A DNA stretch of 64,000 bases from Escherichia coli (lineage in GTDB: Bacteria; Pseudomonadota; Gammaproteobacteria; Enterobacterales; Enterobacteriaceae), in the NCBI RefSeq assembly GCF_003334765.1, contig NZ_QOWT01000002.1, one strand, 5' to 3'. The position numbers are program-made. This document shows positions 31,401-61,400 of this stretch, one piece after another; position 1 is the stretch's first letter, and each line of letters opens with the position of its first letter.

Positions 31401-34400
31401 GATCCTGATAGATATGATCCACGCGCTCGGTGTTGAATGACGATGCACGACGCTTGATACCATGCACCTCGTAACCTTTTTCCAGCAGAAACTCTGCCAG
31501 GTAAGAACCGTCTTGTCCGGTTATGCCAGTAATGAGAGCGACTTTAGCCATTTTACATTTCCTGTTCTTAAAAATACTCAACCTAAAATAATGCTTTTAT
31601 ATGCTGAAGCATAGTTCTCGATAACAAATTTCCCGGAGGCACGAATTGCCTGTTCCCGATAATTTTCATAGTCATCGAATATTTTATCCAATTTATATCC
31701 AATGTCGTCTTCAGTATTTTCCACAAGTAACCCATTACCCTCAATTAATTCAAAACATCCGCCCACATCACTTAACAGGAGTGGTATTGCAGCTGTGTGA
31801 GCCTCAAGGCCTGACATAGGCAAACCTTCACTATCGGATATCAGTGAAAATAAATCATACTCATGATAGTTATAAAAATTATTGACCTCACCCAAAAAAT
31901 GAATATTTTCACATTCACTGAATTGTTTCTTCAATGATTCTAACCTTTCCCCCCCTCCTACGATATGGAGGCTATACTGGGGCTTTTTCGATATTACATT
32001 CGCTAACAATTCGGGGCGCTTAGGGTGTGTTAACCTACCAACAAACAGAACCTTATACTGGAGTTGTTTATTATTACATCTCGGCATCTGAGGCACTGAA
32101 TTCGATACTGTGATTATCTTTGGTTCTTTTATACCAATATTCTCAATTGCCTTTTTTTCATCACTTTTGGAAACACACCATATAACATCAGTTAATAAAG
32201 AAAGGTATTTTTCAACAATGCAAAAAATTGATTTTAGGCGACCACCATTATATAAACAAGACCATCCATGCGAAACATAAATACATTTAAAGTCGACTAG
32301 TAATCGAACTAACCTGGCATAAACTCCGGCATTAGCAGAACTTGCTATTAACGTTGAAATGTTATTTTCTTTTAAAATTTTTCTCAATTTAAACAATGTA
32401 AGGAAGTCAAAATATTTTTTAATACCTGGTATGACAAAAACTCCGGCAAAGACATCTTTATGTGTGAGCCATCCTTCTTCAGATGTAATAAGAAATATAT
32501 TACATTCCTCTTTAATAAGGTTAGATATTTCATTTACCCATGTTTGTGCACCACCAATTTCTGATTTTGTAACAATAAAACCAACATTTTTCATATATCA
32601 AAATTCCAAAAATTATTTTTTATATCCATTTGGATTGTTTGTTTGCCAACGCCATACATCTTCGATCATTTCTTTCAAATTTTTTTCCGCTTTCCAGGAA
32701 AGCTTTTTATGTGCCAAATCAGCAGACGCCCATGACTCCGCAACATCCCCCTCACGTCTATTACAAATAGCAACAGGTATACTCTTTTTAGTGACTATCT
32801 CAAACATTTTTACAATCTCTAAAACAGAATAACCTTGACCAGTACCTAAATTAAAAGCTTCATAATTGACATCATTTAAAAACATATATTCTAATGCTTT
32901 AACATGCCCTTTAGCCAAATCACAGACATGTATATAGTCTCTTACTCCTGTACCATCTTTAGTTGGATAATCGTTGCCATAAATATTTAATACAGGAAGT
33001 TGATTTTGTGCAACTTTAGATATATAAGGAACCAGATTATTAGGGATCCCGTTAGGATTTTCACCAATCATCCCGGACTTATGTGCTCCGATTGGATTAA
33101 AGTAACGCAGTGCAATTACTGATTTATTATTATCACTATCACAATAATCACTCAAAATTATTTCTATTATAAATTTCGATGTCCCATATGGGTTTGTAGT
33201 TTCACCAATTCGTCTATCTTCCGTATGGGGAGGGATACTGTTACTCCCATAAACAGTAGCAGAAGAGCTAAATATCATTTTATTAATGTTATATCTCTTC
33301 ATGCATTCAAGTAATACTAAAGTTCCACCAACATTATTAGAATAATACTCTAAGGGCTTTAACTTAGACTCACCTACAGATTTTAACGATGCAAAGTGAA
33401 TTACAGCATCGATATGGTGTCTTGAAAAAATCTCATCAAGTAGATTTTTATCACGGATATCACCTTGATAAGAAATAATTTTCTTATTAGTTATTTGCTC
33501 TACTCTTTTTAATGATTCTATAGAGGAATTGACAAAATTATCTATCGAAACGACATCATGACCATTATTAAGTAACTCAAGTATGGTATGGGATCCAATA
33601 TATCCTGCACCGCCTGTTACGAAAATCACCATATAAACCTCCTTTACCATGAGGATTGAGAGAAAAACACACGCTACCGCCCTTGGCTTAACAGTTACCA
33701 ACTCACTGAAAATGAATCATAGGTACTAAGCATTTAATACTTTTCACTATTTTCCAATTGTCTAACCAAACGAAGTTAGATACAAGGAAAATCTATGCCC
33801 GAGCGATACTTGCGGTAACTTATTGTTATTAAATACTTTAAATAAAAGACAGGAACATTCTTATAATGTAAGCATCTCTGCTTTTGAATGTTCACTGCCG
33901 TTCTATTTTTATTCAATCCACCATATATGGATGATTAATTTTTATTCGCTTAACAGCTTCTCAATCCCTTTACGGAACTTCGCCCCTTCTTTGAGGTTGC
34001 GTAGTCCATACTTCACAAATGCCTGCATATACCCCATTTTTTTACCGCAGTCGTAGCTGTCACCTGTCATCAGCATGGCATCAACGGACTGTTTTTTCGC
34101 CAGTTCAGCAATGGCATCAGTCAGTTGAATACGCCCCCATGCACCAGGCTGAGTGCGTTCAAGTTCCGGCCAAATATCGGCAGAAAGCACATAGCGACCA
34201 ACGGCCATGATGTCTGAGTCCAGCGTCTGCGGCTGATCCGGCTTTTCGATGAATTCAACAATGCGGCTGACTTTGCCTTCGCGATCCAGCGGCTCTTTGG
34301 TCTGAATAACGGAGTATTCCGAGAGGTCGCCCGGCATACGTTTTGCCAGCACCTGGGTACGGCCCGTTTCGTTGAAGCGCGCAATCATGGCAGCAAGGTT

Positions 34401-58400: not shown

Positions 58401-61400
58401 GCCCGGTAATATCACTGCGGATTTCAGCGAGCGTTTTCCCGACTACGTGGACCTTGCCGATATACGGGTAAAACATAGTGCCGTCAGGCTGTACCCAGTT
58501 GCCGGTGTCGCTGGAGCTGCGGTACTGACCGGCTGGCGTGGTGAGTTCCGGGTGATCCCAGACGGTGACATTCAGAACGTCGCCCGGCCCGACGCGATAC
58601 TGGTAATTCGCGATCTCACTTTCCAGCGTCATATTGGGGCGCGCTACATTCGGGCGTGGGCGTAATTGGTCAATCAGGCGCGGGGTCAGCGGATAAACAT
58701 TCACCATTTTGTCGAGATCGAAATCAGCGTCCTGCTGTTTGATGACGTCTTTGCCCATCGTCGACATATTGCTGCCCGGAAGTACTGTGCAACCGCTTAT
58801 CAAGGTTACTGACACCAATAATGGCATCAATTTCATTTTGGATTTCATCATTGTTTATTTATCACTTTGGCAGAGTAATTATCCTGTGCACTATTAATAG
58901 CAATGTCGCCATGCACATTTACCTTGCAGTTAATTGAATACAAATTTAACTGGCATCAGTCCTAAAAAAATTGATTTCATCCGCAGGCTATTGACAGAAT
59001 AATTCAGACTGGTCTTTCAGGCATCCAGACACGCTACCGCCCCTGGCTTTTTAGCTACCAATACACTGATTTAGCTTAATTTTTCAAACCCTCTCTGCAT
59101 ACAATCGTTGATGAGAAAGGGTTATTGCGGAAATTAACTTCCGAATATAAGGTGACATTATGGTAATTGAATATTGGCTCTCCAATAATGCAGGAGGAAG
59201 TGTTACAGCTAACGGAATAGCAGGCAAGGTAACAATTCGGCAATTGGCTATTTTTAAGAATTATATTAAGTGTCATTCAATATGGTTTTTAGGAGTTTCT
59301 TTAGGTTGACAATATTTAATATTGCGTCTCCACATGCGATATTTCTTAAATAATGTTTTATTATTACCACTTTTAATTCAGGGATAATGTGAGGTTATTA
59401 CCCTCAAATAATATGAGATAAATAGTGCTGCAACATTGCATTTTTGCCCCGATTTATCCATGATCGAATTGTGACATTTGTCATACAACGAATAGGTTTT
59501 GTACTTACTATGGAATGGATTGCCGATCCGTCTATCTGGGCCGGGTTAATCACGCTGATTGTGATCGAACTGGTCCTCGGCATTGATAACCTGGTCTTTA
59601 TTGCCATCCTCGCCGAAAAACTACCGCCGAAGCAGCGCGACCGCGCACGGGTTACCGGGCTGCTGCTGGCGATGTTAATGCGCCTGTTACTGCTGGCGTC
59701 AATCTCCTGGCTGGTCACCCTGACTCAACCGCTGTTCAGCTTCCGCTCGTTTACCTTTAGCGCCCGCGACTTAATCATGCTGTTTGGTGGTTTCTTCCTG
59801 TTGTTCAAAGCCACGATGGAGCTGAACGAACGGCTGGAAGGGAAAGACAGCAATAATCCCACACAACGCAAAGGTGCGAAGTTCTGGGGCGTGGTGACGC
59901 AAATTGTGGTACTGGACGCCATTTTCTCACTCGACTCAGTGATTACCGCCGTCGGGATGGTCGACCATTTACTGGTCATGATGGCCGCCGTGGTTATCGC
60001 TATCAGCCTGATGTTGATGGCCAGCAAGCCGTTAACGCAATTTGTTAACAGTCACCCGACGATCGTTATTCTCTGCTTAAGCTTCCTGTTGATGATTGGC
60101 TTTAGCCTGGTGGCAGAAGGTTTCGGCTTCGTCATTCCGAAAGGCTACCTGTACGCTGCCATTGGTTTCTCGGTGATGATCGAGGCGCTCAATCAGTTGG
60201 CTATCTTTAACCGGCGACGTTTTCTTTCCGCTAACCAGACGCTGCGCCAGCGGACTACCGAAGCGGTAATGCGCCTGCTTAGCGGGCAAAAAGAAGATGC
60301 GGAACTGGACGCCGAAACCGCGTCCATGCTGGTGGATCATGGTAACCAGCAGATCTTTAATCCGCAGGAACGGCGGATGATTGAGCGGGTACTTAATCTT
60401 AACCAGCGTACCGTCAGCAGCATTATGACGTCGCGCCACGATATTGAGCATATCGATCTCAACGCGCCGGAAGACGAGATCCGCCAGTTACTGGAGCGAA
60501 ATCAGCATACGCGGCTGGTGGTTACCGACGGTGATGATGCAGAAGATTTGCTCGGTGTTGTTCACGTTATCGACCTGCTACAACAGTCACTGCGCGGCGA
60601 ACCGCTCAACCTGCGGGTGTTGATTCGCCAGCCGCTGGTGTTCCCGGAAACCTTGCCGTTGTTACCTGCCCTGGAGCAGTTCCGTAATGCCCGCACGCAC
60701 TTTGCTTTTGTGGTGGATGAGTTTGGCTCGGTGGAAGGGATTGTGACATTAAGTGACGTCACTGAAACCATTGCCGGTAACTTACCGAACGAAGTGGAAG
60801 AGATCGACGCCCGCCATGATATTCAGAAGAATGCGGACGGTTCCTGGACGGCGAATGGTCATATGCCGCTGGAAGATCTGGTGCAATATGTGCCGCTGCC
60901 GCTGGATGAAAAACGTGAATATCACACCATTGCCGGGCTGTTGATGGAGTATTTGCAACGTATTCCAAAACCTGGCGAAGAAGTTCAGGTGGGGGATTAT
61001 TTGCTTAAAACGTTGCAGGTGGAAAGCCATCGCGTGCAGAAGGTGCAGATTATTCCACTGCGTAAGGATGGCGAGATGGAGTACGAGGTGTGATGGTATC
61101 GGTCATTTTACCCGATAGCCGAAAGGAATAAGATGAGGGAACCGCGCCAGCGGCGATTTACCGCCGGGAGCCCGGGTTGCCAGGGTGGTGGCGATTGAGC
61201 CACCCTGGCACGTTCACCGGCTTGAGCGTTCCATAGTAGTGAGGAACATCAAGTGAACGGAACAGCCTTCGATCTTACATATTCAGAATATAATGGTGCC
61301 GCCGCGAACGCCTGATGCGACGCTTTACGCGTCTTATCAGGCCTACAGGACAGGTCACCTGGTAACCTACATCTTCTCCAGCAACTTCTTCACATCTTTG

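Follow-up and report, generated by a model that had tools for sequence, protein, structure and literature searches.

Two long polysaccharide operons on the minus strand of a 64,000-nucleotide (nt) stretch of Escherichia coli DNA (contig NZ_QOWT01000002.1 of assembly GCF_003334765.1; hereafter the window) each carry a JUMPstart element in their leader, one ahead of the O-antigen genes and one ahead of wza, the first gene of the colanic acid operon. We are confident that both elements are canonical JUMPstart sequences whose 3'-terminal 12 nt are the operon polarity suppressor (ops), and that they act as the RfaH-loading leaders of the two operons. The window spans the his, O-antigen, and colanic acid loci of E. 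coli, and its O-antigen cluster is of the O86 type. The elements and their ops sites are the following.

33670..33708, minus strand: O-antigen JUMPstart, between the galF stop (33942) and the galE/gne start (33632); Rfam RF01707 and sequence read
33670..33681, minus strand: O-antigen ops, exact GGCGGTAGCGTG, 37 nt 5' of the galE/gne ATG
59030..59068, minus strand: wza JUMPstart, in the yegH-wza intergenic region; Rfam RF01707 and sequence read
59030..59041, minus strand: wza ops, exact GGCGGTAGCGTG, 178 nt 5' of the wza ATG (58851)

Two JUMPstart elements with exact ops sites

Both elements are 39 nt long. Read along the minus strand, 33708..33670 in the O-antigen leader is CAGTGAGTTGGTAACTGTTAAGCCAAGGGCGGTAGCGTG and 59068..59030 in the wza leader is CAGTGTATTGGTAGCTAAAAAGCCAGGGGCGGTAGCGTG. 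When the whole window was scanned against Rfam at gathering thresholds (35 bits for JUMPstart, RF01707), the model matched these two leaders only, with 52.5 bits (E = 3.8e-9) at 33670-33708 and 57.3 bits (E = 1.6e-10) at 59030-59068, in each case over model positions 1-38 of 38. The 12-nt ops GGCGGTAGCGTG, which meets the consensus GGCGGTAGnnTG, forms the exact 3' end of both. An earlier note on this DNA had described two near-consensus 39-nt JUMPstart elements with ops in the O-antigen and wza leaders, and these scores bear it out; its coordinates (33671..33708 and 59031..59068) locate the sites correctly but stop 1 nt short at each 3' end, missing the last G of ops.

Both elements are untranslated and lie 5' of the first gene of their operon, in the galF-galE spacer and the yegH-wza spacer, respectively. 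Both ops sites are on the non-template (sense) strand, as the elements and all the genes downstream of them are on the minus strand.

The 12-mer GGCGGTAGCGTG occurs twice in the window, in the two leaders, and in none of 100 dinucleotide-preserving shuffles. The shorter form GGCGGTAG, quoted as the ops motif in the earlier note, is present at both leaders but is not specific when taken alone: the window holds four copies of this 8-mer against 1.3 expected, and 5 of 100 shuffles reach four. The two extra copies, both on the minus strand, fall in wcaI (46275-46282, sense) and in yegH (59621-59628, antisense). They were judged to be chance matches and not ops sites, being in coding sequence and lacking the NNTG tail and the JUMPstart 5' half; with two of the four copies in coding sequence, the bare 8-mer was rejected as a diagnostic of ops. 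These counts are also what could be put forward for the view that the leader elements are themselves functionless chance copies of a short G-rich word. This view is virtually untenable and can be taken as refuted, since the expected number of the 12-mer is zero and its copies are in the leaders only, the covariance-model E-values are in the range of 1e-9 to 1e-10, and position and sequence are kept across five serogroups while the flanks diverge.

The two JUMPstart elements are identical at 32 of 39 positions, and to this extent they are matched, as had been claimed; no homology between the two leaders was found beyond JUMPstart, the likeness ending within about 41 nt. Neither leader was thus copied from the other, and the idea that one is a duplicate of the other was rejected for want of flanking homology.

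Conservation in other E. coli strains

The same 36-kb region was compared in UTI89 (O18), O145 RM9872, one O25b ST131 strain, and one O104:H4 strain. In each of these four unrelated serogroups, JUMPstart matches exactly twice, in the spacer from galF to the first O-antigen gene and ahead of wza. In the alignment of the ten elements from the five strains, the ops 12-mer is invariant (10/10), as is most of the JUMPstart 5' half, while the O-antigen leaders diverge on either side of the element. The wza leader is kept in 4829 of 5426 complete E. coli genomes, in about 4800 at 95% identity or more. The galF-to-first-gene spacer of the window has 100% identity with that of many strains of the ST38 type and 99.5% identity with that of an O127:H6 strain. 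The rfaH gene maps elsewhere on the E. coli chromosome and is outside the 64-kb window; it was found in all 5426 complete genomes, from which its presence in the genome of this strain is near certain.

The O-antigen leader of the window resembles the JUMPstart/ops leaders of the E. coli and Salmonella O-antigen (rfb) clusters in position (the galF-to-first-gene spacer), in strand, and in its identical 12-nt ops, and it shares conserved promoter-like islands upstream with the O18, O145, O25b, and O104 leaders. It differs from the rfb leaders in its 5' half, with GGTAAC in place of GGTAGC and GCCAAGGG in place of GCCAGGGG, which results in a U-A closing pair, and in its short spacer of 37 nt to the first start codon. 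The wza JUMPstart recurs without change ahead of wza in UTI89, O145 RM9872, and O104:H4, and its leader shows no notable difference from the wza leader of CFT073, which is a target of RfaH in chromatin immunoprecipitation (ChIP; PMC9765446). The same 12-nt ops is also found in the 5' leaders of waaQ/rfa, kps, hly, and F tra, which are long, horizontally acquired envelope or virulence operons, as well as in the leader of the group 1 capsule cluster, where JUMPstart is between galF and wzi. These operons carry other cargo genes, and none of them is in the window.

As the Rfam model of JUMPstart describes a stem-loop, the element could be mainly a structured RNA leader that acts on stability or translation independently of RfaH, with ops being incidental. 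The 5-bp stem is kept in both window elements and in 97% of the cells over the ten aligned elements (with C-G, U-G, or U-A as the outer pair), and the 12-nt ops model leaves the 5' 27 nt of JUMPstart unexplained. However, covariation in the stem is not above the shuffled control, as 210 of 500 shuffles reach the observed value (there being few distinct sequences), and the invariant block is ops rather than the stem. Moreover, the recruitment of RfaH to non-template ops has been established both structurally and in vivo (PMC5995543, PMC9765446). A mainly RfaH-independent RNA leader is therefore very unlikely, and a leader function of the RNA would at most be an additional role of the element, not an alternative to RfaH loading.

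It could also be proposed that the elements persist chiefly as anchors for homologous recombination during the exchange of polysaccharide cassettes, with transcription being secondary. The O-antigen JUMPstart does sit at the border between the conserved galF-side DNA and the serogroup-specific, low-GC DNA, and O86 and O127/O90 share their first seven genes, the rest having apparently been exchanged by recombination (PMC7685785). Yet a 39-nt block offers little length for homologous recombination to work efficiently. Strains do not exchange the cluster that follows the wza element, and this cluster is kept in 4829 genomes; the contacts of RfaH account for the invariance of ops. We regard this proposal as extremely improbable.

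Proposed RfaH recruitment at the two leaders

Every RfaH-controlled operon carries a 12-nt ops in its leader, and the elongation complex paused at ops recruits RfaH by means of a hairpin that the non-template DNA forms; the ops12 used in the structural and biochemical work on this recruitment is GGCGGTAGCGTG, the same as at both window sites (PMC5995543). In CFT073, RfaH ChIP gave signal at eight leader ops sites, including those of the O-antigen (wzx) and wza-wcaM operons. This signal was absent in an rfaH deletion, and ops-like sites within coding regions were not bound (PMC9765446). RfaH has been proposed to counter the elongation blocks mediated by H-NS/StpA and by Rho, and AT-rich DNA is the type that is targeted by H-NS and Rho and counter-silenced by RfaH (PMC9765446). 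The O86-specific genes are AT-rich (GC content of 0.28-0.34), which fits RfaH control for this reason. Colanic acid transcription has been described as involving JUMPstart-RfaH antitermination under the control of RcsA/RcsB (PMC9976346), and a JUMPstart between galF and the O-antigen genes is standard (PMC6128206).

The recruitment mechanism and the RfaH occupancy of both homologous leaders, the latter in another E. coli strain, are taken from this literature, and by analogy the following events would be expected here. RNA polymerase would initiate at a promoter 5' of each leader and pause upon reaching ops. The non-template DNA of ops, exposed in the transcription bubble, would form a small hairpin that recruits autoinhibited RfaH, which would then refold and remain bound to the polymerase in place of NusG. 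The bound RfaH would lead to less pausing, less Rho-dependent termination, and fewer H-NS-mediated elongation blocks, and would couple the polymerase to the ribosome. The promoter-distal genes of both the 12.4-kb O86 operon and the 22.6-kb colanic acid operon would thereby be expressed.

Several points weigh against RfaH control of the two operons. For this strain, we infer the RfaH dependence of both. H-NS silences initiation at the wza operon of CFT073 in standard growth, which makes the operon a 'cryptic' RfaH target there (PMC9765446), and the reliance of a normally silent wza operon on RfaH is conditional. The 5' half of the O86 JUMPstart is off consensus at a few positions (GGTAAC and GCCAAGGG). 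A generic promoter scan of both leaders revealed no enrichment over shuffles, and the promoter positions given below are predictions. Intrinsic terminators inside either operon are likewise not in excess over shuffles, and any polarity suppressed by RfaH would therefore be Rho- or H-NS-dependent. RfaH antitermination of both minus-strand operons, as anticipated in the earlier note, is nevertheless supported by the placement of the elements, the exact ops12, their conservation, the universality of rfaH in E. coli, the CFT073 ChIP data (PMC9765446), and the work on colanic acid (PMC9976346).

Predicted promoters and internal structure

In the alignment of the O-antigen leaders from the five serogroups, conserved promoter-like islands are found 50-115 nt upstream of JUMPstart; besides JUMPstart itself, only GATTTTCCTTGT.TC and GGT.AGACAATT are invariant upstream of it. 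Because of these invariant islands, the O-antigen promoter was placed, on the sequence, at a putative -35 box TTGTAT (33785..33780) and -10 box GACAAT (33762..33757) separated by a 17-nt spacer on the minus strand, a site not called by the generic consensus promoter scanner. If this prediction is right, transcription would start about 40 nt 5' of JUMPstart. In the wza leader, the sole promoter-like match is a weak sigma-70-like site, TGGAGA-16-CATAAT (59157..59184, minus strand), 89 nt upstream of JUMPstart. With 9 of 12 matches, it is no better than those found in shuffles and is at most a candidate cps promoter. Many RefSeq genomes have an annotated 49-residue 'hypothetical protein' in the yegH-wza interval (about 59160-59309, plus strand). 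This open reading frame (ORF) runs antisense to the region of the wza promoter, 5' of JUMPstart, and was probably called in error.

Within the colanic acid operon, the wzc-wcaA spacer (54921..55097, minus strand) is REP/BIME-like and strongly structured, with a fold of -62.7 kcal/mol (z = -4.6) and none of 200 shuffles as stable. It is plausibly an internal elongation barrier that antitermination would help overcome. Repeats of the naRNA4/REP type number one to four in the wzxC-wcaK spacer of the other strains, and a further two are found between cpsB and cpsG in O104:H4; in the window, none reaches the Rfam threshold.

Gene content of the region

Gene names were transferred from strain JE86-ST02 (99.1% identical) and from near-identical genomes and were cross-checked against the ORF list. 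In an annotated genome, the region homologous to the window encodes an O86-family wzx and wzy. The layout is as follows.

Up to 17033, plus strand: his operon
17130-21077, minus strand: wzzB, ugd, and gnd
33632 to 21199, minus strand: O86 O-antigen operon, 12 genes, 12.4 kb, from ORFs and transferred annotation
33942-34835, minus strand: galF
35078-36073, minus strand: GlcNAc-P-P-Und 4-epimerase gene
58851 to 36231, minus strand: colanic acid operon, wza to wcaM, 20 genes, 22.6 kb, from ORFs and near-identical genomes
Plus strand, divergent from wza: yegH

The O86 operon has the order galE/gne, a GT4 glycosyltransferase gene, gmd, fcl, gmm, manC, manB, wzx, wbnI, wzy (frameshifted), a glycosyltransferase gene, and an alpha-1,2-fucosyltransferase gene, with intergenic gaps of 26 nt at most. 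The colanic acid operon comprises wza, wzb, wzc, wcaA-F, gmd, fcl, gmm, wcaI, cpsB, cpsG, wcaJ, wzxC, wcaK, wcaL, and wcaM. Both are thus long, tightly packed polysaccharide operons on the minus strand.

The Rfam scan returned three further RNA motifs. Two are expected in the his region: the histidine operon leader (9830-9953, plus strand, 131.6 bits) and the enterobacterial small RNA STnc240 (7459-7533, minus strand, 68.2 bits). The third, in the colanic acid operon, is the 'algC RNA' motif RF02929 between cpsB and cpsG (44509-44558, minus strand, 77.3 bits), which was found in the same place in 4/4 comparison strains.

Duplicated GDP-fucose genes and a possible RcsAB box

The O86 and colanic acid clusters share two duplicated segments: gmd-fcl-gmm (29016-31545 and 47301-49830; 2.5 kb, 95% identical) and most of manB (26371-27514 and 43361-44504; 1.1 kb, 96% identical). 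The copies are in direct orientation, 17-18 kb apart, and these genes are islands of high GC content (0.54-0.56) within the otherwise AT-rich O-antigen cluster. One protein accession stands for both fcl products in JE86-ST02. This pattern suggests gene conversion between the two clusters. The direct repeats of gmd-fcl-gmm and manB are also a substrate for a deletion of about 18 kb.

Between galF and the predicted O-antigen promoter, the sequence TAAGAATGTTCCTG (33863..33850, minus strand) agrees at 12 of 14 positions with an RcsAB-box consensus. It is located about 70 nt upstream of the predicted -35 box, and other serogroups keep part of it (GAAT.TTCCTG). Upstream of wza, this consensus gave no match with three or fewer mismatches. 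The consensus is for this reason an unreliable probe, and the single two-mismatch site, TAAGAATGTTCCTG, is only a lead. It is conceivable, although unlikely, that the O86/O127-type O-antigen leader is wired to Rcs envelope stress as well as to RfaH, and that the variant 5' half of its JUMPstart might tune RfaH loading. If this were true, the two neighboring polysaccharide operons would share a logic of Rcs-dependent initiation and RfaH-dependent elongation.

A length-variable poly-G tract in wzy

Among the side observations, the most interesting is that the O86 wzy gene (24273 to about 22874, minus strand) is frameshifted by a poly-G tract of variable length. The tract is at 23756..23747, at about codons 173-176. 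In the window, as in JE86-ST02, it is a G10, and Wzy is truncated after 182 residues; a second ORF (23758..22946), which starts at an ATG overlapping the tract, reads the correct C-terminal frame of Wzy. Strain XH990 has a G9, and its gene is annotated as 'frameshifted; internal stop', while strain Res13-Lact-PEB01-20 has a G11 and an intact gene. Among 40 listed O86 genomes, judged by match length, about 36 have G9, 1 has G10, and 3 have G11. The tract is possibly a slipped-strand switch (phase variation) or a decay point of O-antigen polymerization, or else a systematic homopolymer miscall in assemblies. No mention of it was found in a literature search.

Significance

The two elements are the textbook RfaH antitermination signals of essentially every E. 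coli, and nothing about them is new to biology; the elements and their interpretation were both already known, and the earlier note had rightly recorded them as expected biology. As wza is silenced by H-NS in CFT073, a quantitative reverse-transcription PCR of an rfaH deletion in uninduced cells would give a false negative for wza, and such a test of the wza operon is meaningful only once the operon has been induced, through Rcs or by loss of hns. For annotation, the finding marks two RfaH loading sites and hence where the two polysaccharide transcription units of the region begin. If either cluster is to be expressed from a heterologous promoter, the ops leader would be needed for its distal genes.

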